Below the pieces are notes generated by a model. It was not told where the DNA came from. It saw only the letters and a program-made list of their open reading frames with translations, and made no database searches. Shown one piece after another: positions 13,660 to 31,362 of a stretch of DNA of 32,000 nucleotides (positions are counted from its first letter, which is position 1; every line of letters begins with the position of its first letter). This DNA is from Clostridium kluyveri (lineage in GTDB: Bacteria > Bacillota > Clostridia > Clostridiales > Clostridiaceae). The stretch lies in contig NZ_CP018335.1 in assembly GCF_001902295.1 (NCBI RefSeq), positions 1,852,750-1,884,749 on the forward strand. Reading direction: 5' to 3'. The position numbers and the translations under genes are program-made.

Positions 13660-13845
13660 TATTTTTACAAAAAGTAAATTTAAAGAATTAATTGGCGAAT
13701 TGTCTTTTTAAATAAGCAGAAAGACCAACTATAATAAGTCAAGTACTTTTTAAAAAGAAGTTATATTAAGTTTATGATTTTAAAAACTGTATGACAAAAA
13801 GACTTGCACTGCTACAAGTTTGAAATGGTTATAATTGCAAAAAAA

Positions 13846-15030: not shown

Positions 15031-15055
15031 AATATCACACCTTTAAAAGAGTATT

Positions 15056-15230
15056 TTAGATTGGGAATCCCCTTATCTAGTAAGCGTCACTACCTCGTGA
15101 TAAATACGAAGAAATACCAAATGGTATTCAACATCCAACTCATTCGCGAACTGCTTATTAGAAAGAGGTATCAGTCTTTCGAGTACGAGTTCTAAGACTC
15201 AAGGAGAAAGCGATAATCCTCTCAATCTAA
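15056..15230 (-). ncRNA. Candidate IS110 bridge-type noncoding RNA upstream of the transposase
   Basis: ~175-nt noncoding segment 5' of the transposase bounded by TTAGATTG (15056..15063) / CAATCTAA (15223..15230); several internal complementary segments. Confidence 0.5.
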
Positions 15231-15427
15231 TAAAACAATTATCTCTCAATTAGAGAGAAAACTAAAGAATAGGTTATAGGTTTTCCTAATGAAATAACCT
15301 AAATATATTATACGAGTATTCCTGTAATAAAGAGTTTTAGACTTTGAATGAAATAAAAAAACCTGATATAAATATATTGTGTCACTTGCAAGAAGACAAC
15401 AACAATCTATATCAGGAGGAAAACAAT

Positions 15428-16693
15428 ATGAATAATCGAATTATAGTTCCTAACACATTAATATTAGGGATAGACATAGCAAAGGAAAATCACTATGGTC
15501 AATTTGTAGTAAATGGTGAATATATAAAAAAGCCGTTCCTTATAAAGAATACCAGAGAATCTTTCGAATGTCTATTAGATTCAATCAGACAATTAAAGGC
15601 GAAATATAACTTAGATTATGTATTAGTAGGAATGGAGCCAACAGGTCACTATTGGAAGAATCTTGCTTACTACTTAAAAAGTCAAGGGATAGAGCTATGC
15701 TTGGTCAATCCATATCATGTTAATAAAATTAAGGAGCTTGAAGATAATAGTCCAACTAAGAATGACAAAAAAGATGCCAAGATTATTTCTAAACTTATAT
15801 ATCAAGGTCAATACCTAAACTGCATGTTTGAGGAAGAACTCTACGTAAATCTTCGATTATGCAGCAACAATAGGCAAGAGCTAAAAAAACAGTTTATCTC
15901 AGAAAAAGTAAGACTAATAGCGCTATTAGATGAATACTTTCCAGAATTTAAAAAGATGTTTTCAGATATCTTAGGAAAGTCCGCTTTATGTATACTGAAA
16001 ACATGTCCTTTCCCACAAGATATAGTGAATATAGGAGTTTCTGAGCTTACTCAAAAGCTTCTAGATGCTACACATAATCGTGTTGGATTTAAGAAAGCAG
16101 AGCTGGTTTTTAATGCAGCTAAAACTTCAATAGGAGTGCCTGTAGGGCTTGAAGGGGCCAGATATAGATTAAGGCTTATTTTAAGGCAATTAGAAGCTTT
16201 ACAAAAGGAACTAGATGATGTGGAAAAGCTCATGGAAGAATATCTTTTGCAGACAGGTTATTCAGAATATTTACTTAGCATAAAAGGTGTAGGCATAGTA
16301 ACAGCTGCGGGTTTTCTAGCTGAAATTGGAGACATATCAAAATATGACAGCTATAAGCAAATACAGAAAGTGGCAGGACTTAACTTGAAAGAAACCAGCT
16401 CTGGCATGAAAAAAGGTAAAACTAAAATTAGTAAAAGAGGTCGTTCAAATTTAAGAAATATTCTATATCAGGCAGCAACTGTTATGGTAGCTAAGAATAC
16501 TGCATTTAAAGAAATATATACCCATTTAACGAAAAGACAGGAAAATCAATTAACCGGAAAACAAGCAATAGTTGCACTAAGTGTAAGACTTATAAAAGTT
16601 ATGTACACTTTATGCAAGAAAAAAACAACATATACACATGACAAAGTTCATGGGTTGACAAGTTATGGTATATTGAAATTTATAGTTCTTTAA
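15428..16693 (+). CDS. Second, divergent IS110-superfamily transposase
   Basis: LGIDIAKENHYGQFVVNG, GMEPTGHYWKNLAYYL, NDKKDAKIISKLI, SIKGVGIVTAAGFLAEIGDIS, GLNLKETSSGM, SKRGRSNLRNILYQA; RBS aggagg before ATG 15428. Confidence 0.94.
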   Translation: MNNRIIVPNTLILGIDIAKENHYGQFVVNGEYIKKPFLIKNTRESFECLLDSIRQLKAKYNLDYVLVGMEPTGHYWKNLAYYLKSQGIELCLVNPYHVNKIKELEDNSPTKNDKKDAKIISKLIYQGQYLNCMFEEELYVNLRLCSNNRQELKKQFISEKVRLIALLDEYFPEFKKMFSDILGKSALCILKTCPFPQDIVNIGVSELTQKLLDATHNRVGFKKAELVFNAAKTSIGVPVGLEGARYRLRLILRQLEALQKELDDVEKLMEEYLLQTGYSEYLLSIKGVGIVTAAGFLAEIGDISKYDSYKQIQKVAGLNLKETSSGMKKGKTKISKRGRSNLRNILYQAATVMVAKNTAFKEIYTHLTKRQENQLTGKQAIVALSVRLIKVMYTLCKKKTTYTHDKVHGLTSYGILKFIVL

Positions 16694-16699
16694 GAGTAA

Positions 16700-16865
16700 G
16701 GTAAAGCGCGTTCAAACCCCCATAAGGGCTTAATTGACCCAGTATACGAGGATTAATGCTAGCACCTGCTCTAAAATGCAGAACGAAGGAATGTAGAGAC
16801 ATAGATATGTACTCCGTGAGACATGGTAGGGTAAGCATTAGAGCTATATAGGTGTGTTTCCTTCA
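16700..16865 (+). ncRNA. Candidate structured noncoding RNA at the 3' end of the second IS110-type element (IS1111-like arrangement)
   Basis: Noncoding, locally higher-GC segment directly after the transposase stop, with TAATGCT (16754..16760)/AGCATTA (16834..16840) and CCCcataaGGG hairpin. Confidence 0.4.
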
Positions 16866-17044
16866 AAATATTGGAATATCACTTACACTCTTATGCACAC
16901 GTTCAACCTTCTCCATCCAGTATTACCTATATATTCAATATACTCACATATTTAAATTTAACCACTTGTTTATAAATAATGAAATTCTATGAAAATAGAA
17001 GTAAATAAAAGATAAATTAAAATTTATTGAGGTAGGAGAAAAAA

Positions 17045-17793
17045 ATGACAAAAAATATTAAACTTTTTTGTTTGCCATATGCTGGGGGCACATCTATGTA
17101 TTATATGAAATGGAAACAATATTTATGCAGCAATATTGAAGTATATCCTCTAGAAATGGCAGGAAGGGGAAAAAGATTTGGTTCAAATTTGTTTGAGAAT
17201 ATGTATGATGTTGTAAAGGATCTATTTAGTATATTAGCAAAAGAATTAGATAAATTAGGTGACTTTGAATATGCATTTTTTGGACATAGCATGGGAACTG
17301 TTATAATTTATGAACTAATGAAAAAAATAAAACAATATAATTACAAAGAACCCATACATATATTTATGTCTGGTAGAGTTCCACCTAGCTTTCAGGAAAA
17401 AAAATTATTTACAATTTAAGTTATGATGAATTTAAAAGAGAAATATCAAATTTAGGGGGAGTACCTGATGACATAATTAATAACAATGATGTATTTGATA
17501 TATTTCTCCCTATATTAAGAGCAGATTACAAAATAATCGAAACTTATAAATTTTCAAAATCCCCTAAATGGAATTTTGACATTTCAGTATTAAATGGGAG
17601 AAATGATCCAGAGGTTGAGGATTATTATATTTCTAAATGGGACATGTATACAAATAAAAAATGTAATTTTTATTTATTTGATGGAGGTCATTTCTTTATT
17701 AATGAAAATACAGTTGAAGTTGTAGAGAAAATAAATAATATTCTTATTAGAAATTTAGGAGAAAAATCTTTTTTCAAGGAGGCTAAAATTTAG
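17045..17793 (+). pseudogene. Type II (external) thioesterase, interrupted by an apparent -1 frameshift at A8 (17397..17404)
   Basis: LFCLPYAGGTSMYYMKWKQYL, FGHSMGTVIIYELM; ORF 17045..17419 stops shortly after the A-tract, while the other frame continues KIIYNLSYDEFKREISNLGGVPDDIINNNDVFDIFLPILRADYKIIETY...FDGGHFFI...KEAKI* to 17793. Confidence 0.85.
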
Positions 17794-18776
17794 TGTTTAA
17801 CAATGAAAAGTTTTTTTGGTCACCTGCGGCAAGATGGGAAAAAAAAGATGGTCAGGTAAAGATTGAAGTATTTTGCTATAAAGATTATATTGTTGAGTTA
17901 TTTCCTGAATTCTATTTTTTTACACAGAAAGGTGTTTATGTAAATGACTTAATTGATAAATTTCCGAAATATGATAAGGACAGATTAAAAAGTTTTATAC
18001 AGGATTTAATTAGAAAAAAGATATTAGTTGATTCTCCACTTATACCTCATGAATTATTTTATAGTGGAAATTACCTTTTTCAAAATAAACATAGTGAAAA
18101 TATAAAATATGATAAATTAGAATTTGAAAATTTTAAGAGTATGCAGTTAAATAGAAATTACAAAACGCCTAAGGGTCTGAAGATAAATTTATATAGTGAT
18201 GAGCAATATCCCTATTGTATAAGTGAACGAAAAACATGCAGAAGTTTTAATACAAATGAAATAATTAGTTTTGAAGTATTCTCAAAATTAATAGCTGTTT
18301 TTAGACAAAGAAGAATTAATGGACAAATTAAATATTACTATGCTAGTGCTGGAGGACTTTACCCTATAGACATATATATTTATATAAAGGAGAAGAGAGT
18401 AGAAAATTTAAAACAAGGTCTTTATTATTATAGTCCTTTAGATAATTCAATAAATATTGTAGATGAATGTTGTCATGTAAACAAAAATGCACACTATTTT
18501 ATGAATCAATCTATATTTAATCAATCGGCTTTTTCAATTTTTTTTATTTATAATATGGAAGTTACAATGCCTAAATATGGTGGTATCGGATATTTATATT
18601 CGTGTATAGATATAGGTATAATGGTAAGTTCACTTACTTTTGTTGCAGGACTATATAATATTGGTTTATGTTCTATAGGAGATATGAATTTTCATAAAAT
18701 AGAAAAATATTTTCAGCTTAATAAAAATCAAGTTTATATACATACAGTGGAATTAGGACTGAAGTTAGAAGATTAA
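17793..18776 (+). CDS. SagB/McbC-type flavin-dependent oxidoreductase (azoline oxidase-like)
   Basis: Nitroreductase/SagB-like features (YYYASAGGLYPIDIYIYIKE, LKQGLYYYSPLDNSINIV, GIGYLYSCIDIGIMVSSLTFVAGLYNIGLCSIGD); GTG start overlapping thioesterase TAG. Confidence 0.8.
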   Translation: MFNNEKFFWSPAARWEKKDGQVKIEVFCYKDYIVELFPEFYFFTQKGVYVNDLIDKFPKYDKDRLKSFIQDLIRKKILVDSPLIPHELFYSGNYLFQNKHSENIKYDKLEFENFKSMQLNRNYKTPKGLKINLYSDEQYPYCISERKTCRSFNTNEIISFEVFSKLIAVFRQRRINGQIKYYYASAGGLYPIDIYIYIKEKRVENLKQGLYYYSPLDNSINIVDECCHVNKNAHYFMNQSIFNQSAFSIFFIYNMEVTMPKYGGIGYLYSCIDIGIMVSSLTFVAGLYNIGLCSIGDMNFHKIEKYFQLNKNQVYIHTVELGLKLED

Positions 18777-18819
18777 AGTTATTACATTGCTGTAAAATTT
18801 ATGGAAGGAGTATTACGAA

Positions 18820-21800
18820 ATGGATTCTTATGTAAGATCGGAGAAGCTTGAAATCAAAAATTTTCCAAAAGAATTGTCGACTTTATTAAAAATAGCTGGT
18901 GACTTTTCCAGAATAAATGGAAGAGGGATATATTTTATTGAAGAAGATGAATCGGAAATATTTTTGCCGTATTATAAATTGTATGAAAATGCAGTAAGAT
19001 TATGCAGTGGATTACAGAAATTAGGTGTAAAAAGGGGAGATAAGTTAATATTTCAGTTAAAAAGTGAATTTAATTTTATAAATATGTTTTGGGCATGCAT
19101 AGTAGGAGGATATATACCGGTTCCTCTCCCAATTTCAAATATATATTCTTATAATTCACAAGATCTAGTTAGATTTTTAAATGTTACAGAGCAGCTATCA
19201 CATCCTAAAATTATTTCTGAAAAATTATTTCAAGAGTTCTTCAATGAAGGTGCATACAGTAATTTAACTGTAATATATTTTGAAGATATTGATAAATCCT
19301 ATGAACAGAATAATAAAATTCAGCTGCCTTTGCCATCTGATATTGCTTTTATTCAATTTTCCTCGGGAAGTACAGGAAATCCTAAAGGGGTTATACTTAC
19401 ACATAATAATTTAATTCATAATATATTTCAAATTAATGAAAAAAGTAAAAGTACCAATATGGATTTTATGGCTAATTGGATGCCACTTACCCATAATCTG
19501 GGATTAATCGCTCTTCATATTGCACCTTTAGGTGCTTTTAGTAATCAAATTAAGTTCAATACAGAGCTATTTATTAAAAAACCTGAATTATTTATGAAAA
19601 AAATAACTATTTATAAAGCTACTATGTCGGGCTTCCCTAATTTTGCATTATCCTTGCTTTTAGAAAGAATACCAGATGATGAATCTCAAAATTATGATTT
19701 ATCTCATCTCAGGCTTATTTATAACGGTGCAGAACCTATATCAAATAATGTAATTCAAAAATTCAATAAAAAGTTTTCCAAATGGTATTTAAATAAAAAG
19801 GCTATGCATGCTACCTATGGAATGGCAGAAGCAAGTGTTATCATCTCTCTTCAGGATATGGATGATTCTATTATCAGTCATAAAATTATAAGAAATGAAT
19901 TTTCGTTAAATAACAATATTATATATTCAGAAGACAATGAAGATACTATAGAATTTGTTGATGTGGGATATCTGCTGCCAGAAATGGAAGTCAAAGTATT
20001 GGATGATGATGATATTTTATTGGAAAATGAAAAGGTAGGTAATATTCTGGTAAAGGGTCCTAATATAACATCTGGATATATTAATGATGATGGAATGAAT
20101 GAAAAATTATTTCTAGATGGATTTCTAAGAACGGGAGATTTAGGATTTGTTAAAGATGGAAGATTGGTAATAACAGGACGCAGAAGAGATTTGATCTTTT
20201 TTAATGGGCAGAATTTCTATGCTCATGATATAGAACATTTATGTGAAGAAATTGATGAAGTTGATTTTGGACAAGTGGCTGCATGTGGGGTTACAAATTA
20301 TAAAAATGGTAGTGAGGAATTAATAATTTTCATACAATTTAGGGAGGAAATTAAAAATTTTAGTGAAGCTACCTTAAGAATAAAAGAATATGTAAATAGA
20401 AGAATAGGACAAAGTATTACCCATATATTGCCTGTAGAATATATACCTAAAACTGCAAGTGGGAAGATACAAAGGCAGGAGCTTGGACAGAGGTATTTGA
20501 ATGGCGAATTTCATGATATCATTTTAATGATAAATGAAGAAATAAAAAACTGTAATAATAAAAATAATACAGCAAGAAATAAAATAGATTTTGATTTAAT
20601 AAAGTTATGGGGCAGAATATTGAACTTGGAAAACATACGAATTCAGGATGATTTTTTTAAACTTGGAGGAGATTCTCTGAAATTAATTCAAATATGTTAT
20701 GAAATAAGTAATATATATAAAGTTGATATAAATTCAAGTGAGTTTATAAAGTTAGGTAATATTTTAAATATAAGTGATTATATTCAAAATAATAAAAATT
20801 TAATAAGTGAACAAAAATATCCTGTATCAGCACCCGATACTAAAAATCTTAATGTTCCATTTCCTTTATCCGAAGTACAGTCTGCCTATTTTACAGGGAG
20901 AAACAGTGGATTTGAAATGGGAGGGGTATCAACTCATATATATTATGAAATAGAAACAAAGCTGGATATAGATAAATTTAACCAAAGTCTCAATAAGGTA
21001 ATAAAACATCAGCCTATGTTGAGGGCCATAATTCTTGAAAGTGGCCAGCAGAAAATACTTGAAAGTGTGCCAAAATACAATATAAAAGTGGAAGATATAA
21101 GTGAACTCAATTATGACAGCCAGCAGGAAAGAATATTGGAAGAAAGAGATAGGATGTCTCACTATATATTTAAAACAGATATATGGCCTCTATTTGAATT
21201 CAAAGCTTTTAAGACAAATATCAACAAATACTATATGCTTATAGGATTTGATCTTTTGATATCAGATGGGACTAGCATGCGTATATTGGTGAAAGAAATA
21301 ATAGAAAATTATGATTGCTTTCATAAAGGCTACCAAAAGCTTAAGTTTAATTTTAGAGATTATGTAACGGCATGCGAAGAATTTAAGATATCAAAAGTTT
21401 ATGAAAATGATAAAAAATATTGGATGGAAAAACTCAAGGATTTTCCACAGGCACCTAAACTGCCTTTAAAGCAGGAGCCTTCAGAGGTGGCAAGCCCTCA
21501 TTTCAAAAGACAGAATAAAATTATAAGTAAAAATATCTGGGAGAATATAAAGAAAAAGGCCAAAGAAAATAATATAACTCCTTCCGTACTTTTGTGTACA
21601 GCCTATGCACAGATACTAGGCCACTGGAGCAATGAACCTCATCATGCGATAAATGTGACTGTATTTACAAGATATCCTTTCCATGAGGATGTAAATAAAA
21701 TCATAGGGGATTTTACATCAGTAATGTTACTTGATGTAGATTTAAAAACCGGTACATCTTTTTGGGAAAAGGCATCAGAGGTTCAAAGTTCTATGATGGA

Positions 21801-22401
21801 AGCGCTGGAGCACAGACACTACGATGGAATTAATTTTATAAGGGATATATCAAAATATAATGGATTGGGAGCAAAAGCTGTAATGCCTATAGTGTTTACA
21901 AGTCTACTGTTTTCCATGGACAATGAGGAAAAAGGAGTAGGATTTACAGAACTTGGGGATATAAAAATGGGAGTAAGCCAGACATCACAGGTATATCTGG
22001 ATTATCAGGTAATGGAGATAGGGGGAAATTTATCTATAACATGGGACTATGTAGAAGAATTGTTTGAAGAAGATATGATAAATACCATGTTCCAGCAGTA
22101 TGTAAAGCTGGTGGAAAGTTTACTGGAACACAGGGAATATAGACTTCAGGCAGAAGAAGAGACAATAAAATTTATAGATAATTATAACCACAGGGAAGAA
22201 TTCATACCTGAAACCACCCTTCAGGAGCTGTTTATGAAAAAGGCAAAGGAATGCCCTGAAAATACAGCTCTCATATTTGAAGACAGAAGTATGAACTATA
22301 GGGAACTGGATATTAAATCAAACCAGGTAGCCCATTACTTAAAACAGCAGGGATTTGGCAGCAGTGACTTTATAGGCATAGGTAGTGTAAAAAGTTTATG
22401 A
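18820..22401 (+). CDS. NRPS N-terminal fragment: acyl-AMP ligase (AL/FAAL-like) - carrier protein - heterocyclization (Cy) - start of adenylation domain; native sequence ends at 22380
   Basis: AL: FIQFSSGSTGNPKGVILTH, NWMPLTHNLGLIA; CP: DDFFKLGGDSLKLIQI; Cy motifs FPLSEVQSAYFTGR, LRAIILESGQQ, DLLISD, LPLKQEP, IGDFTSVMLLDV, MPIVFTSLLF; A start LQELFMKKAKECPENTALIFEDRSMNYRELD; stop arises in IS sequence. Confidence 0.92.
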   Translation: MDSYVRSEKLEIKNFPKELSTLLKIAGDFSRINGRGIYFIEEDESEIFLPYYKLYENAVRLCSGLQKLGVKRGDKLIFQLKSEFNFINMFWACIVGGYIPVPLPISNIYSYNSQDLVRFLNVTEQLSHPKIISEKLFQEFFNEGAYSNLTVIYFEDIDKSYEQNNKIQLPLPSDIAFIQFSSGSTGNPKGVILTHNNLIHNIFQINEKSKSTNMDFMANWMPLTHNLGLIALHIAPLGAFSNQIKFNTELFIKKPELFMKKITIYKATMSGFPNFALSLLLERIPDDESQNYDLSHLRLIYNGAEPISNNVIQKFNKKFSKWYLNKKAMHATYGMAEASVIISLQDMDDSIISHKIIRNEFSLNNNIIYSEDNEDTIEFVDVGYLLPEMEVKVLDDDDILLENEKVGNILVKGPNITSGYINDDGMNEKLFLDGFLRTGDLGFVKDGRLVITGRRRDLIFFNGQNFYAHDIEHLCEEIDEVDFGQVAACGVTNYKNGSEELIIFIQFREEIKNFSEATLRIKEYVNRRIGQSITHILPVEYIPKTASGKIQRQELGQRYLNGEFHDIILMINEEIKNCNNKNNTARNKIDFDLIKLWGRILNLENIRIQDDFFKLGGDSLKLIQICYEISNIYKVDINSSEFIKLGNILNISDYIQNNKNLISEQKYPVSAPDTKNLNVPFPLSEVQSAYFTGRNSGFEMGGVSTHIYYEIETKLDIDKFNQSLNKVIKHQPMLRAIILESGQQKILESVPKYNIKVEDISELNYDSQQERILEERDRMSHYIFKTDIWPLFEFKAFKTNINKYYMLIGFDLLISDGTSMRILVKEIIENYDCFHKGYQKLKFNFRDYVTACEEFKISKVYENDKKYWMEKLKDFPQAPKLPLKQEPSEVASPHFKRQNKIISKNIWENIKKKAKENNITPSVLLCTAYAQILGHWSNEPHHAINVTVFTRYPFHEDVNKIIGDFTSVMLLDVDLKTGTSFWEKASEVQSSMMEALEHRHYDGINFIRDISKYNGLGAKAVMPIVFTSLLFSMDNEEKGVGFTELGDIKMGVSQTSQVYLDYQVMEIGGNLSITWDYVEELFEEDMINTMFQQYVKLVESLLEHREYRLQAEEETIKFIDNYNHREEFIPETTLQELFMKKAKECPENTALIFEDRSMNYRELDIKSNQVAHYLKQQGFGSSDFIGIGSVKSL

Positions 22402-22468
22402 AAAACTATAAAATAATAAATTTTTAGGGCACCCATAAATGTAAGTTTGTTACAAATAACCGCAGTTG

Positions 22469-22593
22469 CCCTTGACAAACATTATCCAAATTTTGTTTTA
22501 CCTTGAAGAGGGCGAAGGGAAAAGATATAAAGACATGACAAAAAGCCCTCTGAAAACCAATTTTAAAATTTGTCTAATTCGGTTTGTCAAGGG
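22469..22593 (-). other. Long-range inverted repeat inside the IS, downstream of the transposase
   Basis: CCCTTGACAAAC (22469..22480) and exact complement GTTTGTCAAGGG (22582..22593), with nested GAGGGC/GCCCTC. Confidence 0.6.
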
Positions 22594-22644
22594 TTCGCTG
22601 ACGCCAACAGCTGCTTTAGGGCTCAGCTAAATAGATATAAAATC

Positions 22645-24120
22645 TTAGGAGGTAGCCTGTGATATACAATAGTCTTGAGCTAGTTCAACAAGCTTACACC
22701 AACGAGCTGGCATGGTTTGAAGACTTTGAAGTACAGGTATTTGAACTGGAACCTTATGATTAAGTGTTGAATGAGTTCTTAGAAAATTAAAATATGCAGC
22801 AAATAATGTTACAAATGCTATAGAACCATCTGAACTATTAAAACCACAGGTTGTCCTATAACTGCCTTTAAAGGTTCTATTAAGACGTTCAATTATCTGT
22901 TTTAAAGGTCTGTATTCCTTTGAAACGTCATCATTGTTTGTAAGACCTATGACTTGAGTAATATCGAAGTTAATGTCTTCGCTTGCGAAAAAATGTTGTG
23001 CCAACAAGTAGATTGGATTACCATCAACAATGAAATTTAGTTTTTTAGGTATATCCTTAAGCTTTGATAAAACGTCGTCTAAAGCTTTAACTGCTGAAAG
23101 AGTATCTCTATTTGGTGAAACTCTATAAGAAAGAATAATTTTCTTAACAGAGTCAAAGAAAAAGAAGATATACTGCCATTTACCGTTAACTTTTATGTAT
23201 GTTTCATCACCACAAAAAGAATTAGATAACTCATAATTGTAGTTATCAACAAAGGGCTTTACCACATGGGATACAGCATCAGCGTAGTTTAAAACTGTTT
23301 GATGAGATATTTTAATACCGTGAATATCCCTCATTATTGAAGCCGTCTGTCTTGAAGACATATGGTAGTTTATGTAGTAAGACATAATTAATCCTAAAGT
23401 ATGAGACGAAACCATTATTTTAGGCAGACTAATTTTAGATTTAACAGGGCTTTTACTGCTAAAAGGCTTATAGTCAAAAGTAAATTCCCTAGTTATATAT
23501 CTAACTTTATAGTTGTGAGGGTTATTTTTAAAGTCTTCTCTTTCTTTTTTAGTCATTGAAGCTAAATTGGTTTTATAAAAATCACACTCATCATTCTTAC
23601 ATTTATGCACATAAAAGTCCTTGCGAGTTTTGATTTTTTCAAGTGTTTTACCACAGTAAGGACATTTTAAAATAACGGACTTTTGAAAATAATTTTTAGG
23701 GTTAAATACTGTGTTGCATACCTTACAAAGGTATTGACCTCTGCCACCATTATTATCGTAAAGATACTGGTGGGGAGCACCACATTTAGGACACTTAACT
23801 TCTTTAGGAATGATAGTTTTATTCTTACGTGGCTTAACAGGTGTAAGTTCTTTCTTGTGACTTTCAAAATAGTTATGTAGAAGAACTTTATAATCAAGCT
23901 TTTCAGGTATTTCAAATATAGGTATTTTGTCTACCTGAAGCTTTCTATATTCCTTTTTTACTGGTTCGTCAGAGGCAGGGGTAAACATGGGTTTGCCAAC
24001 TAAAAGAATAAATAATAGGTTAATCATATTGTGTAGGTAAATAATGTATTTAACAAGAAACTCGTTAATCATGCTTGTAGCTTGCTCCTTTCTTCTTTGC
24101 TGGAAATTATGACTTTGCAA
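22645..24120 (-). CDS. DDE transposase with N-terminal zinc-ribbon motifs (IS6/IS240-like catalytic core)
   Basis: CPKCGAPHQYLYD..CKVC, CPYCGKTL; CGDETYIKVNGKWQYIFFFFD, FIVDGNPIY, QIIERLNRTFKGSYRTTCGF. Confidence 0.85.
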   Translation of the reverse strand: MQSHNFQQRRKEQATSMINEFLVKYIIYLHNMINLLFILLVGKPMFTPASDEPVKKEYRKLQVDKIPIFEIPEKLDYKVLLHNYFESHKKELTPVKPRKNKTIIPKEVKCPKCGAPHQYLYDNNGGRGQYLCKVCNTVFNPKNYFQKSVILKCPYCGKTLEKIKTRKDFYVHKCKNDECDFYKTNLASMTKKEREDFKNNPHNYKVRYITREFTFDYKPFSSKSPVKSKISLPKIMVSSHTLGLIMSYYINYHMSSRQTASIMRDIHGIKISHQTVLNYADAVSHVVKPFVDNYNYELSNSFCGDETYIKVNGKWQYIFFFFDSVKKIILSYRVSPNRDTLSAVKALDDVLSKLKDIPKKLNFIVDGNPIYLLAQHFFASEDINFDITQVIGLTNNDDVSKEYRPLKQIIERLNRTFKGSYRTTCGFNSSDGSIAFVTLFAAYFNFLRTHSTLNHKVPVQIPVLQSLQTMPARWCKLVELAQDYCISQATS

Positions 24121-24233
24121 ATCACTAATTTACCCTAAAAGTTTGGGGGGAGCAAGTTATTTATATAAAATTGTTAAAAATAAAAGGGTTACGTCAGAAA
24201 TTATATTAAAATTTTTGACAATACCTAGGCATA

Positions 24234-27053
24234 TATGGGGAAAGAAATATGAAAACCATAGTAAATATAATGGGAGTGTTAAAGGCAGGAGCAGCGTATG
24301 TACCTGTAGATCCAAAATATCCTGAAGATAGGAAAAGATATATACTGGAAAACAGTAACTGCAGGACTATACTAAAGTCAAGTTTCTATGAAGATAAAAA
24401 TTTAAGTATATACCCGGAAACAGTACCCAAAATAAAGTATAATCCACAGGATACTGCCTATATCATATACACTTCGGGAAGTACCGGGAGACCTAAAGGA
24501 GTAGTAATATCTCAAAGTGCTGTAGTAAATACCATAATAGACATAAACAAAAAGTTTGATGTAGGTGAAAAGGACAGAATAATAGGACTGTCATCCCTAT
24601 GCTTTGATTTATCTGTATATGATATATTTGGAGCCCTGTCTTCTGGAGCTTCCCTTGTACAGATTAATGATGTAAGGGATGTAAAAAATGTCATGGATGT
24701 AGTGAAAGAAAAAGGTATCACCATATGGAACTCTGTACCTGCAATAATGGATATATTGCTGGAAAATATGAATTTAAATAGTATAGAAGATTATAAATAT
24801 AATAATGTGTTAAGACTGGTAATGCTGAGTGGGGACTGGATAGGACTTAATCTTCCTGAGAAAATAAAAGAAAATTTTCCAGAAGCCAGGGTAATAAGCC
24901 TGGGAGGAGCTACGGAAGCTTCCATATGGTCTATATACTACCCTATAAAAGATATAAAAGACAGCTGGAGGAGTATACCTTATGGGATGCCTCTTGCAAA
25001 TCAGAAATTTTATGTACTGAATTATGAAATGGAATTCTGTCCTTCAGGAGTACCGGGAGAGCTTTATATTGGAGGAAGGGGACTTGCCAGAGGATATATG
25101 GCAGATAAAGAAAAGACGGAGAATGCATTTATAGAACATCCTAAACTGGGCAGTCTGTACAGAACGGGAGATTATGGAGTACTAAATAGTGAAGGGTATA
25201 TAGAATTTTTGGGGAGAAAAGATCATCAGGTAAAAATAAGAGGACACAGAATAGAACTGGGAGAAATAGAAAATGCACTGATAAAACATGAAAATATAAA
25301 AAATGCAGTGGTTGTAGACAGTAAGGATAATAAAGGAAGAAAGTTTTTGTGTGCCTATATAGTAAGTGAAGTTAGATTAAAAAGAAGTGAGCTAAAAGAA
25401 TATATAGAGGGGAAACTTCCAGAATATATGGTACCTAAATATTTCGTAGATATAAAGGAGATACCATTGACAGCCAATGGCAAGGTGGATAGAAAGAATC
25501 TGCCGCAGCCAGAGGTAGAATTGGAGGATAACTATGTGGCTCCTAGAAATGAAGTAGAAAAAAAATTGGTGGATGTATGGAGTGAGATATTGAATTGTAA
25601 CAATATAGGAATAGAGGATAATTTTTTAGCATTGGGGGGAGATTCTTTAACAGCAATAAAAATGTATGCAAGACTTAATGGCGAATTTGAAATTACTATA
25701 AATGATATATTTCAAAATCAGACAATTTCAAAGTTATCACAAAGAATCAAAAGTAAGAATAATAACTTAAAGTTCAGTATTGAAAAGTACAAGAAACAAT
25801 ATCTTCAAAGGAAAGGCATGTTTTGTGACCTAGAACAAAAATTAGAAAAAGAGTATAAGGATTACAGAAGAAAAAATAGAGAATATTATTGTGAAATTGA
25901 TCTTTCCAAAGTTAAGGTATATGAGAGTATTTTAATTACAGGCTCTACAGGATATGTGGGAAGCCATTTGCTTTATGAGTTTTTAAAAAATACTAATTCT
26001 ATAATATACACTATTATAAGAGGAAGTAGTAGGGATAAAGTTAAAGAAAAGCTTAAGAACAAAATAATATTTTATTTTGGATATGAATTTTATGAAAAAT
26101 ATAATAGTAGGATAATACCATTTAATGGAGATTTGACAGAAGAATATCTTGGATTAAATAAGGATACTTATGATGAACTTGGAAGAAAAATTCACTGCAT
26201 AATAAACTGTGCAGCTAACGTGGCTCATTTTGGTGTATATGATGAACTGTATAAAACAAATGTTAAAATTGTAGAAAAAATTATTGAATTTGCCCAAAAT
26301 TCAATCAAAAAAGATATATTTCATGTATCTACTACTTCTGTTGGAACAGGAAAATTGAATGGTTATTCTAATGTTCTTTATACAGAATATGACTTAGATA
26401 TTGGACATGAGATTGATAATTTTTATTCCAAGACTAAATTTGAAGCAGAAAAACTTATGGTACAGGCCAGAAAAGAGGGCATTAATACCACTATATTAAG
26501 GCTTGGCAATGTGGTATTTAACTCCCAATCTGGAATGTTCCAAGAAAATATAGAAAAAAGTGCATTTTACAACTTGATAAATACTCTCGTTAAACTTGAG
26601 GCAATACCTGAATTTCCATTTGGATTTTTGGAATTTTCATATGTAGACTATGTATGCAAGGCTATGTTCTTGCTTATCACAAGAAAAGAATTACAAAATG
26701 AGATATATCATATAAAAAATTCTAAAAAAATTACTTTTAATGAATTTTCTAATTATTTACAAAAGATAGGTATTGAAATAAATAGGTACGAATATGAGAA
26801 GTTTCTTGACTATTTATACTATAATTATAAAAATGAAAATTTAAAGGATCATATTGACAGCCTATTGGTACACACATACTTAATGCCTTGGAGTGTGGAG
26901 ACATTTTTTGTGGATGCTTCTGAAAAAACGGAAATGTTATTGGGAAAAATGGGCTTTAAGTGGAAAAAACCAGATGCTAAATTGATAAAGAGAATGATAG
27001 ATTATGGTATTAAGGTAGGCTTTTTCGATATAAAGTTAGCAGTTAATAATTAA
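24234..27053 (+). CDS. NRPS C-terminal fragment: rest of Cys-type adenylation domain - PCP - terminal thioester reductase (TD)
   Basis: In-frame continuation YGERNMKTIVNIMGVLKAGAAYVPVDPKYPEDR; AYIIYTSGSTGRPKGVV, FDLSVYDIFGAL, LRLVMLSGDWIG, ISLGGATEASIW; PCP LALGGDSLTAI; TD SILITGSTGYVGSHLLYEFLK, FHVSTTSVGTGKLNG. ORF-track start is 24249. Confidence 0.92.
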   Translation, partial: YGERNMKTIVNIMGVLKAGAAYVPVDPKYPEDRKRYILENSNCRTILKSSFYEDKNLSIYPETVPKIKYNPQDTAYIIYTSGSTGRPKGVVISQSAVVNTIIDINKKFDVGEKDRIIGLSSLCFDLSVYDIFGALSSGASLVQINDVRDVKNVMDVVKEKGITIWNSVPAIMDILLENMNLNSIEDYKYNNVLRLVMLSGDWIGLNLPEKIKENFPEARVISLGGATEASIWSIYYPIKDIKDSWRSIPYGMPLANQKFYVLNYEMEFCPSGVPGELYIGGRGLARGYMADKEKTENAFIEHPKLGSLYRTGDYGVLNSEGYIEFLGRKDHQVKIRGHRIELGEIENALIKHENIKNAVVVDSKDNKGRKFLCAYIVSEVRLKRSELKEYIEGKLPEYMVPKYFVDIKEIPLTANGKVDRKNLPQPEVELEDNYVAPRNEVEKKLVDVWSEILNCNNIGIEDNFLALGGDSLTAIKMYARLNGEFEITINDIFQNQTISKLSQRIKSKNNNLKFSIEKYKKQYLQRKGMFCDLEQKLEKEYKDYRRKNREYYCEIDLSKVKVYESILITGSTGYVGSHLLYEFLKNTNSIIYTIIRGSSRDKVKEKLKNKIIFYFGYEFYEKYNSRIIPFNGDLTEEYLGLNKDTYDELGRKIHCIINCAANVAHFGVYDELYKTNVKIVEKIIEFAQNSIKKDIFHVSTTSVGTGKLNGYSNVLYTEYDLDIGHEIDNFYSKTKFEAEKLMVQARKEGINTTILRLGNVVFNSQSGMFQENIEKSAFYNLINTLVKLEAIPEFPFGFLEFSYVDYVCKAMFLLITRKELQNEIYHIKNSKKITFNEFSNYLQKIGIEINRYEYEKFLDYLYYNYKNENLKDHIDSLLVHTYLMPWSVETFFVDASEKTEMLLGKMGFKWKKPDAKLIKRMIDYGIKVGFFDIKLAVNN

Positions 27054-27115
27054 TTCAATGCCATGACAAGGGGCTTACAATACCTTGTACACAATATATT
27101 TTAAGGAGATATAAG

Positions 27116-28417
27116 ATGAATCAAATAAAACAAGATAAGAAGAAGTTTAAAATGACCTATTGTATAGGAACAAATTTTGATCCAGAATTGATTGAAATAA
27201 TTTCAAAGTATAATAAACAAAATATCTTTAATTCTGTTTTCGGTAAATTAAAAAGTGACTTCATTGGCGGAGGTAGAGCATCTACATTTCTTCCTGATAT
27301 ATCTATGAAAGAATTAAAAAGTTATATTAAATTATGTCATGATAATGATTTAGCATTTAATTATCTAATAAATCCTATGTGTATGGAAAATCAAGAAGTT
27401 GAATCGAGCAGTCATATGAAAATATTAAGGTATCTTTATGAACTTATTAACATAGGAATAGATTCTATTACTATAAATTCTCCTTATTTATGTGAAATAA
27501 TAAAAAAACAGTTCCCGGATTTAAAGGTAGTTATAGGATTATATGCTTATATTTACGATATACATCATGTACGATATTGGACAAACCTTGGCGCTGATGA
27601 GATAACTTTAGGACATAAAATTAACAGGGATTTTGAAGCATTAGAAAAAATGCTAATTTATACAAGAGATAAGAATGTTTCAATGAGACTTATTGCTAAT
27701 AATGTATGTCTGCATTCATGTCCTTATGCTGTAATGCATGGGACAGGGCAATCTCATGCAAGTCAAAAATGTAATGCATCAAAAGCAGAATATATAGACT
27801 ATTGTATATTGAAATGCTTAAATGAGAAAGTGAGAAATCCCGTTAATTTAATTAGTTCAGATTGGATTAGGCCTGAAGATATAGGATATTATGAGGAACT
27901 TTGCAAAAAGACAAATAATTATAAATTATCTATAAAACTTGTAGAAAGAACTAAGACTACAGAATTTCTTACAAGAGTTATTAAAGCTTATGCTACCCGC
28001 TCTTATGATGGAAATCTACTTGATATACTTTTATGGCCTAAAATGAGTGAAATGTTAAAAGTCCAAAAAACACCAGAGCAGATGAAATTACTTGCAAGTC
28101 AATACAATGTAGATGAGCTTACCAAATATTTTGATATATTTAATCTTCCTGAAGTATATATTGATAATAAAAAATTAAATGGATTTTTAGATAAATTCGT
28201 AAAAAATTTTGAATGTGATAAAAAACTTTGTGCTGGAATGAATAATCAAGAGTTATCAGAGGGTAGTAAAGGTGTATCTGAAATTATATGTTCCTACTGT
28301 AATGAATGGGTAAATAAAGCTATTTCTTATGACAATGATGAAGTAAAAAAATGGCTGAATAAATATGATGATGTTGAAATGGGATTAAAAGAAAGTAGAA
28401 TATTTTCTAAAATTTAA
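27116..28417 (+). CDS. U32-family (UbiU/UbiV/peptidase U32-like) protein
   Basis: GIDSITINSPYLCEIIKKQFPDLKVVIGLYAYIYD, LGADEITLGHKINRDFEALEKM, RLIANNVCLHSCPYAVMHG; multiple Cys compatible with an Fe-S cluster. Confidence 0.7.
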   Translation: MNQIKQDKKKFKMTYCIGTNFDPELIEIISKYNKQNIFNSVFGKLKSDFIGGGRASTFLPDISMKELKSYIKLCHDNDLAFNYLINPMCMENQEVESSSHMKILRYLYELINIGIDSITINSPYLCEIIKKQFPDLKVVIGLYAYIYDIHHVRYWTNLGADEITLGHKINRDFEALEKMLIYTRDKNVSMRLIANNVCLHSCPYAVMHGTGQSHASQKCNASKAEYIDYCILKCLNEKVRNPVNLISSDWIRPEDIGYYEELCKKTNNYKLSIKLVERTKTTEFLTRVIKAYATRSYDGNLLDILLWPKMSEMLKVQKTPEQMKLLASQYNVDELTKYFDIFNLPEVYIDNKKLNGFLDKFVKNFECDKKLCAGMNNQELSEGSKGVSEIICSYCNEWVNKAISYDNDEVKKWLNKYDDVEMGLKESRIFSKI

Positions 28418-28495
28418 TTCCTAAATTAAATATATATAAATAGGAGTAATTTACCTTTTTATTTTCCTACCATATAATGAATGGTGATATATTTA

Positions 28496-28530
28496 GGGTG
28501 ATACCATATAAAATGGTGAAGCCCTTTTTT
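28496..28530 (+). terminator. Probable terminator between convergent U32 and AraC genes
   Basis: GGGtgatACCATataaaATGGTgaagCCCttttttt-like hairpin; preceded by a second ACCATataatgaATGGT palindrome at 28469..28485. Confidence 0.6.
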
Positions 28531-28621
28531 AAAGTTAATTATTGCTTATTTACCAATCTTCATTCAAAGGGGATAAGTATTGATTATGCCCCAATAAGTA
28601 AATTCTATCTGAACACATAAA

Positions 28622-29599
28622 TTACTTGATTCGGTGAATATTCCTGTAATTTTTTGGTCCTATGCCATAAGTTTTTTTAAAAATTCCAGCAAAATGTCCA
28701 GCATTATTATACCCTACTTTTGCTGCGATGTTTTTGATACTGTAATCTGAATCTTTTAATAACAAAAGGGCATAATTCATACGCATTTCTCTTAAATAAT
28801 CATAGGCTGTAGCCCCATAAATTTGTTTGAAGGCCATTTGAAATCTTGTTGTGCTCATGTTTGCAATTTTACCTAATTCCACTATAGAAGGATAAGAAGA
28901 TAGATTTTTTTTCATAAAATTAACAACTTTTTTTAAATATCTTAAATCTTTATTATCTAACTTTACACTTAAGGATTCCTGATATTGTCTTTGTTCTAGA
29001 TTGTGGGTAATTAAGGATAGTATTTCTAGAATTTTGCTTTCAAAATATAGTTGCTGGGAAGTGCCTTTTGCCTGGCAATCTCTAATCTGTTGAAAAATAA
29101 AATTTAATTCAGGAATATTAGGATTTTGTGATAAAAAGTGAAAAGCGTCTTTATGATTTTTATAATCTTTTAAATATTCATGATTCAAAAAGTTATGATA
29201 ATAATCTTCAGTTATTAATATTTTAGTAAAACGAGCTGGCTTTCCCACATCACAATAAGCATAGACCAATTTACTAGTATTTATATAGTAACAAATACCC
29301 CTTTCTACAAGGTTCAGTTTTTTACCTTTTATTTTAAAAGAACTGGAATCTGTTTCAAATTGACTTATCTCTAAATAATTTTGACTAATTTCAGATATAC
29401 GTACAAAATTTTCTTTTGGAGTAAAATCTGCAATCAATATAAAGAATAAATTATTCCAATTGATTTTTCGAAGAAATCCTTCTCCATATTGAGGAAACAT
29501 CTTATATGTACTGTCATAAGGGTAAGAAAGTTCAGGTATATATACAAAGTTTAGTTGTTTTAGGGCTATCTCATAATATTCTTCAAGGGATTTAATCAA
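28622..29599 (-). CDS. AraC-family transcriptional regulator
   Basis: C-terminal double HTH: LGKIANMSTTRFQMAFKQIYGATAYDYLREMRMNYALLLLKDSDYSIKNIAAKVGYNNAGHFAGIFKKTYGIGPKNYR. Confidence 0.92.
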   Translation of the reverse strand: MIKSLEEYYEIALKQLNFVYIPELSYPYDSTYKMFPQYGEGFLRKINWNNLFFILIADFTPKENFVRISEISQNYLEISQFETDSSSFKIKGKKLNLVERGICYYINTSKLVYAYCDVGKPARFTKILITEDYYHNFLNHEYLKDYKNHKDAFHFLSQNPNIPELNFIFQQIRDCQAKGTSQQLYFESKILEILSLITHNLEQRQYQESLSVKLDNKDLRYLKKVVNFMKKNLSSYPSIVELGKIANMSTTRFQMAFKQIYGATAYDYLREMRMNYALLLLKDSDYSIKNIAAKVGYNNAGHFAGIFKKTYGIGPKNYRNIHRIK

Positions 29600-29704
29600 A
29601 ATAAATTCCTCCTATTTATACAAATTCATTTAATGTTTTTAGTGTAACATAAAATAATATCACGATAAAGTCAAATAATATCATAATATAACTGTAATCA
29701 TGTT

Positions 29705-29842
29705 TAAAATATGGTTGTAATACTGTTCACATAAGGGATTACAGAGATTCTTAATTTTAAATTTGAACATGGGTATACATATTGCTTTGATATTTATTAT
29801 ACCATAAAATATGAATAGATAATAATTTTCATATGATAATTC
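29705..29842 (+). promoter_or_regulatory. Upstream region of MATE gene, homologous to 9114..9250
   Basis: Contains CCATAAAATATGaATAGATAATAATTTTCAT (29804..29834). Confidence 0.55.
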
Positions 29843-29879
29843 TAAAATTTTTCTAAGATTATACTAAAGGAGGGAAATC

Positions 29880-29951
29880 ATGAGGATTGCTATTGCGACA
29901 GTTACATCTAAAGATGTTTTAAATGATACAGCAACAAGAAAAAACCCATAA
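29880..29951 (+). CDS. Possible 23-aa leader peptide MRIAIATVTSKDVLNDTATRKNP
   Basis: Strong RBS aaaggaggg 5' of ATG; short frame ends 26 nt before the MATE start codon. Confidence 0.35.
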   Translation: MRIAIATVTSKDVLNDTATRKNP

Positions 29952-29977
29952 TTAGTTAGTGAAAGGAAATGGTAAAT

Positions 29978-31342
29978 ATGAGTGGAGATAGTAGAATAAA
30001 ATTAATGAGTGAAGGTAATATTTCTAAGAGTTTATTTAAATTTGGGATACCTATGATTGCAGCTATGCTTGTAAATGCACTTTATAATGTAATAGATGCT
30101 TATTTTGTAAGTGGACTTGGGACAAGTGCCATGGCTGCAGTATTTGTGGCATTTCCTATATCACTTATTTTTTCAGGAGTAGGATTGACTTTTGGAAGTG
30201 GTGGAGGATCTTATATATCTAGACTTTTAGGAGCAGGAAATAAAAATGAAGCCAGCAAAGTTGCATCTACAGCGTTATTAAGTTGTATATTTATAAGCAT
30301 AATTATAGCTATATTATTTTTGATTTTTTTAAGTGATATTTTAGTTTTTATGGGAGCCACTGAAACTATATTACCTTACGCAAAATCTTATGCAATTATA
30401 TTCATAATAGCATCAATAGTAAGTGCTTTTAATGTTTCTATGGGTAATCTAGCAGTATCCCAGGGTGCTTCAGTCATTTCTCTGGTTTCAATATTTACAG
30501 GTGCTATTTTAAATGTAATTCTATGTCCTGTATTTATATATGCACTTAATCTGGGAGTAAAAGGTTCAGCTATTGCAACGCTGGTGGCTCAAAGTGTTAC
30601 TGCTTTAATATATATATGGTATATTTTTAGTGATAAAAGTTATGTAAAAATATCAATTTCTAATTTTTCTTTAAAGAAAGAAATTTATTCTCAAATATTT
30701 AAAATAGGAGTTTCTATGCTTATTTTACAATTATTAACAACTATATCCATGGGATTGATAAATATGGCAGCTAGTGATTATGGAGATTCTGCAGTAGCAG
30801 CTATGGGAATTGTAACTAGAGTAGTTTCATTAGGTACTTATGTTGTGTTTGGATATATGAAAGGATTTCAACCAATGGCAGGATATAATTATGGGGCGAA
30901 AAATTACACAAGATTAAGAGAAGCAATAAAAGTTTCTCTTAAATGGACTACAGGCTTTTGTGCTATATGGACAATTGTAATGTTTGTTTTTTCAAGAGTC
31001 ATTGTTTCTATGTTCAGTAGTAATCTTGAAGTTATTGATATAGCCAATAGGGCGTTAAGAGCTAATAATATTATGTTTATTACATTTGGTTTTCAATTTG
31101 TATATTCAACATTATTTTTAGCAATTGGAAAAGCCAAGGCAGGGGGTATATTGAATATGGCAAGACAAGGCATATTTTTTATTCCTGTAATATTAATTTT
31201 GCCACAAATCATAGGGTTAAACGGAGTGATTTATACTCAAACCATTGCAGATTTATTTGCAACCATATTGACAGGTGTACTTGCATTAAGTATAAGAAAA
31301 CAGATAAATACTTTAATAAACATGGACAAATTACGGATATAG
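29978..31342 (+). CDS. MATE-family multidrug efflux transporter (alternative start 29969)
   Basis: 12-TM pattern; SLFKFGIPMIAAMLVNALYNVIDAYFVS, ALGVKGSAIATLVAQ-like (LNLGVKGSAIATLVAQSVTALIY), GFQPMAGYNYGAKNY. Confidence 0.94.
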   Translation: MSGDSRIKLMSEGNISKSLFKFGIPMIAAMLVNALYNVIDAYFVSGLGTSAMAAVFVAFPISLIFSGVGLTFGSGGGSYISRLLGAGNKNEASKVASTALLSCIFISIIIAILFLIFLSDILVFMGATETILPYAKSYAIIFIIASIVSAFNVSMGNLAVSQGASVISLVSIFTGAILNVILCPVFIYALNLGVKGSAIATLVAQSVTALIYIWYIFSDKSYVKISISNFSLKKEIYSQIFKIGVSMLILQLLTTISMGLINMAASDYGDSAVAAMGIVTRVVSLGTYVVFGYMKGFQPMAGYNYGAKNYTRLREAIKVSLKWTTGFCAIWTIVMFVFSRVIVSMFSSNLEVIDIANRALRANNIMFITFGFQFVYSTLFLAIGKAKAGGILNMARQGIFFIPVILILPQIIGLNGVIYTQTIADLFATILTGVLALSIRKQINTLINMDKLRI

Positions 31343-31362
31343 AAAGAACAGATGTAACAATA

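Follow-up and report, generated by a model that had tools for sequence, protein, structure and literature searches.

The gene cluster described here has its closest characterized relatives in the bacillamide pathway, for which reference structures are available (PDB 5T3E and 7LY4-7LY7; PMC8795117). In that pathway the oxidase BmdC has been shown experimentally to oxidize a thiazoline while it is tethered to the nonribosomal peptide synthetase (NRPS) (PMC8795117). The locus in question lies in a 32,000-nucleotide stretch of Clostridium kluyveri DNA, hereafter the window, and occupies positions 17045-31342. We read it as probably a one-module bacillamide-type thiazole NRPS cluster of this species, represented in the window by an allele that mobile elements have inactivated, and it includes a gene for a U32-like protein.

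Other compounds of the same predicted scaffold type, a 2-substituted thiazol(in)e-4-carbaldehyde or alcohol made from one Cys, are aeruginaldehyde (IQS) and aerugine of the PchD/E/F line. This pyochelin line takes a salicylate starter through the stand-alone PchD, and the aldehyde arises there by a shunt from a larger pathway and not from a dedicated reductase-terminated module. The U32 proteins characterized so far are Fe-S enzymes required for the hydroxylation of aromatic rings in the absence of O2, with prephenate as oxygen donor (PMC10990095, PMC5727448, PMC11574389), and the mechanism proposed for them opens with a two-electron oxidation of the ring (PMC10990095).

Little is known of the natural-product pathways of strict anaerobes or of the way in which they achieve oxidative tailoring without O2. 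At its core the C. kluyveri cluster would follow ordinary NRPS logic, with a bacillamide-like thiazole module, a new loader and reductive release: a fatty or aryl acid and Cys would yield a thiazoline, then a thiazole, then a released aldehyde or alcohol, a route well supported by the predicted domains. The conserved U32-like partner, probably an Fe-S tailoring oxidase or hydroxylase, is a testable candidate for the O2-independent oxidation or hydroxylation of a small molecule.

Domain organization of the NRPS and its oxidase

As raw open reading frames (ORFs) the NRPS gene falls into two pieces, 18820-22401 and 24249-27053, with a transposase gene on the opposite strand between them. Excision of the insertion sequence (IS) and one copy of the octamer that flanks it joins the pieces in frame and gives an uninterrupted ORF of 2126 aa. 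The 5' part of the gene (18820..22380, + strand; Pfam, NCBIfam and PDB matches) holds the loader, an acyl carrier protein (ACP), a heterocyclization (Cy) domain and the start of the adenylation (A) domain, and the 3' part (24234..27053, + strand; TIGR01733, PF07993 and PDB matches) holds the rest of the A domain, a peptidyl carrier protein (PCP) and a thioester reductase. An earlier reading of this DNA, made from the letters and their ORFs (the sequence-only reading), had proposed the order acyl ligase-ACP-Cy-A-PCP-terminal reductase once the IS is removed, which the reconstructed ORF bears out. It had also named a gene set of thioesterase, oxidase, NRPS, U32 protein, AraC regulator and MATE exporter, and all six genes were confirmed at the coordinates given there by the ORF listing and by Pfam and NCBIfam scans.

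The loader (18907-20529, residues ~30-570 of the reconstructed protein) is an AMP-binding enzyme whose best PDB matches are McyG (4R0M, 3e-81), 6ULW/6ULX, which are deposited only as 'amino acid adenylation domain-containing protein', 7R7E, the E. coli fatty acyl-AMP ligase (FAAL) 3PBK and the Legionella FAAL 3KXW. CoA ligases are far weaker PDB matches than these acyl-AMP ligases. McyG is a loader of phenylpropanoids. An ACP with the motif GGDSL (20596-20784) follows directly. Given its acyl-AMP-ligase relatives and the adjoining ACP, the loader is therefore predicted to activate a carboxylic acid and to load the carrier directly; such a FAAL/McyG-like enzyme would adenylate an acid without an alpha-amino group. 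A short- or medium-chain fatty acid is a plausible starter in this caproate producer, which makes abundant C4-C8 acids as possible starters, and the acid may also be an arylalkyl or keto acid. The proposal of an acyl ligase-type loader thus stands in so far as the nearest solved relatives are ACP-loading acyl-AMP ligases; the relationship does not fix which acid is used, and the scores fall below the FAAL cut-offs.

The next domain (20863-22149) has the motif DLLISD (residue 811 of the reconstructed protein) where condensation domains have HHxxxDG; the sister-strain allele reads DFLIID. Cy domains make up all of the top eight PDB matches (BmdB, EpoB, HMWP2/Irp2, PchE and 6LTA; E 1e-121 to 1e-48), led by BmdB Cy2 (E 1.9e-121), whereas ordinary C domains match at E 1e-14 or weaker. 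The identification as a Cy domain, already suggested from the letters, is borne out by the motif and these matches. The A domain begins at 22219, is interrupted by the IS and ends at 25502. It scores 356 bits with TIGR01733 (cut-off 317), and its code, read from the A4/A5/A10 positions, is DLYNMSLIWK, which we take to be a Cys-type code by comparison with a DLYN[LM]SLIWK reference. The same code occurs in at least 30 Cy-linked A domains of related loci. The best single-domain PDB match is the Cys-activating A2 domain of BmdB, at 597.7 bits in one stretch, with the next single A domains at ~330 bits or less. Activation of Cys, as the sequence-only reading had proposed, is thus well supported at the level of sequence. 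In the scheme that we propose, the A domain would load L-Cys on the PCP (25566-25751, GGDSL), and the Cy domain would condense and cyclodehydrate it with the starter to a 2-substituted thiazoline-4-carbonyl-S-PCP.

The last domain (25932-27026) is a reductase with the motifs TGSTGYVG (residue 1756) and YSKTK (residue 1918). It matches PF07993 with 154.6 bits, and its best PDB matches are 6VTJ (E 1.8e-44), MxaA (3.4e-27) and the R domain of AusA (2e-21). Reductive release had been proposed for this line, and a C-terminal NRPS thioester reductase agrees with it at the domain level; the domain would release a thiazole-4-carbaldehyde or, if it is reduced once more, the corresponding alcohol.

Upstream of the NRPS gene lies a gene for a BmdC-like FMN-dependent azoline oxidase of the SagB/ThcOx family (17793..18776, + strand), whose GTG start overlaps the thioesterase stop codon by 1 nt. 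The oxidase scores 101.8 bits with TIGR03605 (cut-off 78.4) and 59.3 bits with PF00881. Its residues 5-326 align with residues 6-326 of BmdC (7LY4/7LY7; E 2.3e-87) in the same two-domain layout, with an N-terminal RRE-like domain. Among the BmdC residues whose roles in FMN binding and catalysis are described (PMC8795117), R145/R146/S147/R149 are R/K/T/R in the window oxidase, and N236, Y260, S292 and G294 are conserved. Because the oxidase matches over its full length a proven oxidase of tethered thiazolines, oxidation to the thiazole, which had been put forward only as a possibility, is well founded; the enzyme would dehydrogenate the thiazoline to the thiazole in trans, on the tethered intermediate. 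The proposed biosynthetic logic agrees with all the domain-level tests that we ran, and the interpretation overall is partly supported.

A U32-like partner conserved across thiazol(in)e NRPS lines

The U32-like gene (27116..28417, + strand) begins 62 bp past the NRPS stop codon in the same orientation. Its product, a divergent TIM-barrel protein of the U32 superfamily, scores 31.7 bits with PF01136 (cut-off 22.4) in a match that covers only profile positions 4-86 of 233. The AlphaFold model, which is of good confidence, is a TIM barrel (pLDDT 82.7, pTM 0.85), and the U32 structure 5D88, the only close solved relative, is its top Foldseek match (E 1e-9) and is also matched by the family profile (E 1.6e-11). 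Across 94 family members C198, C202, C234 and H208 are invariant, C89 is kept in 80 (85%), and a C-terminal four-Cys motif (C367, C372, C392, C395) is kept in at least 95%. In an alignment of the family hidden Markov model (HMM) with four E. coli U32 proteins, the CX3C loop that follows the barrel is placed opposite the part of RlhA that holds the Fe-S motif, C198 corresponding to the first Cys of the RlhA motif with different spacing; the alignment covers the barrel in part, and the match of the Cys loops is suggestive.

We collected ~960 relatives of the protein from a search of 5.8 billion proteins, and a full HMM scan of 1.84 billion representatives returned 651 clusters at E 1e-30 or better. 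For genomic context we surveyed the large ORFs of 94 loci and read the motifs in every condensation-type and A domain. The U32 gene adjoins an NRPS gene in Clostridium, Fusobacterium, Peptoniphilus, Lacrimispora, Ruminococcus and Sporomusaceae, and in C. botulinum, Fusobacterium nucleatum and Peptoniphilus duerdenii it follows a reductase-ended NRPS after 66-128 bp. Essentially every NRPS beside the U32 clade combines DxxxxD Cy domains with DLYN[LMFI]S[LM][IV]WK A domains, in one to at least three Cy-A(Cys) modules. We considered whether the U32 protein is tied to the reductase and its aldehyde product and rejected this: at nine of the NRPS-linked loci the U32 gene is present and a reductase domain is missing, and all keep Cy-A(Cys). 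The constant partner of the U32 protein is therefore Cys heterocyclization and not reductive release. The sequence-only reading had called the U32 protein an unfamiliar companion of such a line. That holds for the accessible full-text literature, in which we found no paper linking U32 proteins to NRPSs or biosynthetic clusters (many subscription journals lie outside it), but the protein is no incidental neighbor, being a conserved partner of Cys-heterocyclizing NRPSs.

In a neighbor-joining tree the Bacillota members form a clade that is mostly NRPS-linked, and a deeper clade comprises members from Geobacter, Geomonas, Desulfuromonadaceae and Nitrospirota. The context of this deeper clade is a B12-radical-SAM gene, a methyltransferase gene, the U32 gene and a type III polyketide synthase (PKS) gene, in this order (L065, L072, L080, L082, L085). 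This set suggests an anaerobic pathway to phenolic lipids or quinones that carry hydroxyl and methyl groups, and it resembles an anaerobic counterpart of the hydroxylase-containing alkylresorcinol and quinone operons. A methyltransferase gene stands directly before the U32 gene both in NRPS clusters and in the distant type III PKS clade, an arrangement that fits hydroxylation followed by methylation.

A cassette of Lacrimispora, Hungatella and Ruminococcus extends this picture. It consists of a FAAL- or C-started (Cy-A-T)x2-reductase NRPS, a methyltransferase, the U32 protein, a class III aminotransferase and a thioesterase, a gene content that implies conversion of the aldehyde to an amine, with a methylation alongside the U32 step. 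At loci L016-L021, L023, L029 and L036, which include Ruminococcus flavefaciens, the methyltransferase is UbiE-like and the thioesterase is of type II.

Other loci of the survey show further variation. In Clostridium felsineum (L093, 7640-11272) two U32 paralogues with an SDR/epimerase gene between them follow the NRPS and a PLP-dependent decarboxylase, which suggests that U32 proteins act there at more than a single step. In two C. botulinum genomes (L002 and L003) the NRPS upstream of the same U32 gene differs in length, with 1774 aa in one strain and more than 3600 aa in the other; the short version begins with a partial A domain, and the difference suggests a collapse of repeated Cy-A(Cys)-T modules by recombination. 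Two U32-family genes, in Ruminiclostridium sufflavum and in a Sporomusaceae genome (L092, 7284-8147; L094, 19240-21290), have shikimate genes within 10 kb, including DAHP synthase and chorismate synthase/shikimate kinase, and these are of interest because the known U32 oxidases depend on prephenate.

We propose that the U32-like protein is an Fe-S protein carrying out an O2-independent oxidative tailoring of the thiazol(in)e, which would most likely be a ring hydroxylation of the UbiU/V-TrhP-RlhA type. Circumstantial support for a hydroxylase comes from the methyltransferase gene ahead of U32 in two unrelated cluster types, from the shikimate genes and from the type III PKS context. A role as hydroxylase or oxidase that modifies the thiazol(in)e product without O2 is a tentative assignment, to which we give somewhat less than even weight. 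Slightly more tentative is the broader proposal that these proteins form a new clade of Fe-S O2-independent tailoring oxidases or hydroxylases for the secondary metabolites of anaerobes, dedicated to thiazol(in)e NRPS lines in Clostridium, Fusobacterium, Peptoniphilus, Lacrimispora and Ruminococcus and with a sister clade that belongs to type III PKS/methyltransferase clusters for phenolic lipids in Geobacter-like bacteria.

Three lesions in the window copy and an intact allele elsewhere

The copy in the window appears to be an inactivated allele with three lesions. The first is an IS6/IS240-type insertion sequence (22381..24225, - strand; 1845 bp) that splits the A domain of the NRPS and is missing from the sister-strain locus L086 and from locus L087. 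It has imperfect terminal inverted repeats, GGTAGTGTAAAAAG and GGTATTGTCAAAAA, which agree at 11 of the first 14 bases, and is flanked by an 8-bp direct target duplication, TAGGCATA, at 22373-22380 and 24226-24233. A duplication of this length is typical of the IS6/IS240 family. The transposase (22645-24120) is unusually long at 491 aa, carries N-terminal zinc ribbons and matches PF13610 (DDE_Tnp_IS240) with 40.7 bits (cut-off 27); against the NCBIfam IS6 equivalog it scores 79 bits, below the cut-off of 125.

The second lesion is an IS110-family block (13724..17033, no strand assigned; 3310 bp) with two transposase genes (13846-15030 on the - strand and 15344-16693 on the + strand; Pfam DEDD_Tnp_IS110 and Transposase_20). 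Its junctions read AAAG/ACCAAC... and ...GAGGT/AGGAGAAAAAAATG, and by blastn breakpoints against L086 the block is missing from the sister strain. The point of insertion falls within the ribosome-binding region, ~11 bp upstream of the thioesterase ATG, and the block cuts the operon off from its upstream region.

The third lesion is a frameshift in the type II thioesterase gene (17045..17793, + strand; PF00975), whose ORF ends after 124 aa. The frame is lost at a run of eight A at 17396-17403, where the sister strain has nine A and encodes a protein of 249 aa. Adding one A restores a 249-aa thioesterase with the same layout as in the sister strain (three-frame translation). The PF00975 match is limited to residues 6-119, and we considered a thioesterase that is simply short; we rejected this, as the second half reads on in the +1 frame and matches the 249-aa sister protein. 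Given the three lesions, the window locus therefore probably makes nothing, and in the strain that carries this allele the pathway is most likely silent.

A look-up of the oxidase protein found the cluster in C. kluyveri CP110856 and several metagenome contigs. In CP110856, the cultured sister strain (record positions ~721.2-732 kb; L086 9252-18817), and in a 35-kb metagenome contig the order is intact: thioesterase of 249 aa, oxidase, uninterrupted NRPS of 2141 aa, U32, AraC and MATE. The reconstructed 2126-aa NRPS is collinear with the intact 2141-aa gene of CP110856, the NRPS proteins of the two strains are ~99% identical outside two mosaic patches, and the ORFs contain no other stops.

The larger patch covers the Cy core (window 21213-21963; L086 13421-14172), where ~750 bp have 67% DNA identity between flanks of 99-100%. 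Over ~250 residues the protein identity is ~45%, and DxxxxD is kept in both alleles, which suggests a mosaic allele formed by recombination with another Cy-containing gene. Several metagenome contigs end just before this patch. A second, short divergent patch lies in the A domain between A4 and A5 (window 24770-24810; L086 15125-15210), with a 15-residue length difference between the strains and an unchanged specificity code. Apart from the lesions described above, the window carries an IS3-family element (5617-7138; orfA 6519-7085 and orfB 5677-6477, minus strand) that is absent from the sister strain, and it holds four mobile-element insertions in 32 kb (IS3, IS110 twice and IS6-like).

Weighing the interpretation

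Several observations weigh against the interpretation given above, beginning with its basis in sequence: chemistry has been observed for no member of this cluster family. The best NCBIfam models for the loader are fatty acyl-AMP ligases, and all FAAL/FACL models stay below cut-off (PRK09192, 332 bits against 600). The reductase scores 186.5 bits with TIGR01746, below the cut-off of 213.35; this match runs over the full profile (positions 2-370 of 371), and the domain therefore appears to be a divergent member of that family. The thioesterase frameshift could be a homopolymer sequencing error, which the two insertions cannot be.

Other points of this kind concern the U32-like protein. It is only distantly related to UbiU, UbiV, TrhP and RlhA, and the similarity is marginal. 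When the family profile was compared with single E. coli sequences by hhalign, UbiU matched at E 0.0025 over the N-terminal half only and UbiV gave no significant match, so that nothing usable for mapping cysteines came from either. The NCBIfam TrhP model matches residues 63-168 only (E 8.5e-5; 21.5 bits, where the cut-off is 534), and TrhP in turn reaches 27.8 bits with the family HMM in an alignment of 72 residues. The cysteines are arranged as C89...C198-X3-C202...X31...C234, and the canonical spacing CX6CX15CX3C is absent. Some close family members (L008/L009, L012, L014 and a rumen Oscillospiraceae subclade) have no NRPS within 10 kb, and the same holds for members in R. sufflavum and a Spirochaetota metagenome-assembled genome. 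The C. botulinum cluster has the U32 gene with no BmdC-like oxidase within view, which favors the redox-partner reading discussed below.

Among the alternatives, the one that retains most weight concerns the product, which may not be a free 2-alkylthiazole-4-carbaldehyde: the starter could be an arylalkyl or alpha-keto acid, or the aldehyde could be reduced, transaminated or further condensed. The loader, below every FAAL cut-off, matches McyG and then 6ULW/6ULX before the classical FAALs, a class III aminotransferase and a methyltransferase come after the reductase in Lacrimispora, Hungatella and Ruminococcus, and in both strains the gene just ahead of the cluster encodes an Fe-containing alcohol dehydrogenase. 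As the window cluster itself has neither aminotransferase nor methyltransferase, and its sequence fixes the reductase as neither a two-electron nor a four-electron enzyme, we regard a different product as rather unlikely, although it has to be kept in mind.

Less probable, and the main alternative to the hydroxylase role, is that the U32-like protein serves as an O2-independent redox partner for azoline oxidation. It would either dehydrogenate the thiazoline itself or act as electron acceptor for the BmdC-like oxidase, whose reduced FMN is re-oxidized by O2 in aerobes. In a strict anaerobe such a partner would have a place, and what all NRPS neighbors of the U32 gene have in common is Cy-A(Cys), not the reductase domain. 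The C. botulinum cluster of two genes, NRPS and U32 with no BmdC-like gene in view, fits a dehydrogenase at least as well as a hydroxylase, and the two-electron ring oxidation of the proposed U32 mechanism would by itself turn a thiazoline into a thiazole (PMC10990095). At least 12 loci carry both BmdC-like and U32 genes, which are thus not simple alternatives to each other. The same U32 family also occurs in type III PKS/methyltransferase clusters that have no azoline, and the methyltransferase gene directly upstream of U32 in many clusters fits hydroxylation followed by methylation better. We consider a redox-partner role unlikely for these reasons and favor tailoring of the thiazol(in)e by hydroxylation.

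The locus could also be an evolutionary relic that is functionless in the species and not only in this strain, as the three independent lesions of this copy and the high IS density of the window might suggest. Near-identical intact copies in CP110856 and several metagenome assemblies, where the genes for thioesterase, oxidase, NRPS and U32 all have their full length, argue against it, as do the lack of other stops and the ~99% protein identity outside the two mosaic patches, and we think a relic improbable; the loss of function would concern the window allele. Finally, the synteny across phyla makes it very unlikely that the U32 gene is a bystander encoding a collagenase-type peptidase or a housekeeping RNA/quinone hydroxylase, as the Pfam family name 'peptidase U32' and the members without a nearby NRPS might imply, since the gene shares the NRPS orientation at 62 bp, keeps this adjacency from Clostridium to Sporomusaceae and occurs twice in one C. 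felsineum NRPS cluster, and its product falls short of the TrhP, UbiU/V and RlhA models.

Neighboring genes

Past the U32 gene lie an AraC-family regulator gene, convergent with the operon (28622..29599, - strand; PF12833 and PF00165 matches), and a MATE efflux transporter gene (29969..31342, + strand; TIGR00797 209.9 bits against a cut-off of 147). The regulator gene is kept in place in the sister strain and holds the same position in L086, L087 and L001, as the transporter gene does in L086 and L001. The MATE transporter is probably the exporter of the product; in the proposed scheme it would pump the product out, the AraC protein would regulate the cluster and the type II thioesterase would edit mis-primed carriers. 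A promoter and terminator scan of 16700-32000 performed no better than on shuffled sequence and was not used.

At locus L001 (6161-12902; same species), which extends past window base 32000, further genes begin ~0.3 kb after the MATE gene. They encode an ABC transporter pair, an Sfp-type phosphopantetheinyl transferase, a second type II thioesterase and a second NRPS (C-A-C-KR...). No phosphopantetheinyl transferase is encoded in the window cluster, which may depend on the Sfp-type enzyme of this neighboring NRPS locus.

Directly upstream of the cluster, in both strains, is a gene for an Fe-containing alcohol dehydrogenase (12284-13453), separated from the thioesterase gene by only ~280 bp in the intact allele; the enzyme could reduce or oxidize the released aldehyde. 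A gene for a 935-aa protein with cell-wall-binding repeats contains an internal tandem duplication of ~507 bp (11077-11583 and 11593-12099, 96-99% identical), which surfaced as cross-matches when the strains were compared. The cell-wall protein, the alcohol dehydrogenase, the U32 protein and the oxidase are exact matches of NCBI entries APM38902-APM38910.

Comparison with known systems

In the accessible literature we found no characterized cluster that combines loader-ACP-Cy-A-PCP-reductase with an oxidase and a U32 protein, so that the absence of a known system of identical architecture, on which the sequence-only reading had depended, holds within that literature; a prior description elsewhere is possible. 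The bilothiazole cluster of Bilophila (PMC11934131) was considered as a match and rejected: its NRPS/PKS line has several modules, an aryl cap and release by a thioesterase, and the cluster lacks a U32 gene. The amendments that our analysis makes to the sequence-only reading are the dead allele, the bacillamide type as the closest family and a loader substrate that is left open.

If the U32 clade uses prephenate as oxygen donor like UbiU/V, this would be the first link of that chemistry to natural-product biosynthesis, and the clade would play the part in anaerobes that P450 and flavin oxygenases have in aerobic clusters. The pairing of U32 with multi-thiazoline NRPSs in C. botulinum and Fusobacterium nucleatum means that the chemistry could matter for pathogens and for gut and rumen communities, as could any metal-binding or reactive-aldehyde activity of such products.

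The sequence-only reading had taken aeruginaldehyde/IQS as the nearest system. By sequence, the closest characterized system appears instead to be bacillamide: the Cy-A(Cys)-PCP module (BmdB module 2) and the stand-alone two-domain FMN oxidase (BmdC) are the nearest solved relatives, and the Cy domain of PchE is a much weaker match to the window Cy domain (E 9.6e-50) than that of BmdB. The two lines differ at both ends. BmdB begins with an Ala-activating A1-PCP1 and the window NRPS with an acyl-AMP-ligase/ACP loader; BmdB ends with a C domain that adds tryptamine and the window NRPS with a thioester reductase. The window cluster has no decarboxylase, adds the U32-like protein, type II thioesterase, AraC and MATE, and belongs to a strict anaerobe, as the proposed anaerobic origin requires.

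The terminal SDR-type thioester reductase is homologous to those of the aureusimine synthetase AusA, of MxaA and of the archaeal/rumen PCP-R protein 6VTJ, all from NRPSs that set free peptide aldehydes, whereas these lines use ordinary C domains and residues other than Cys and lack a Cy domain, an azoline oxidase and a U32 partner. With UbiU/UbiV, TrhP and RlhA the U32-like protein shares the superfamily (PF01136), a Cys-rich loop and anaerobic hosts, and like RlhA it has extra, essential-looking C-terminal cysteines. The known proteins modify quinones or RNA, whereas the U32-like protein of C. kluyveri is found in the context of secondary metabolism.

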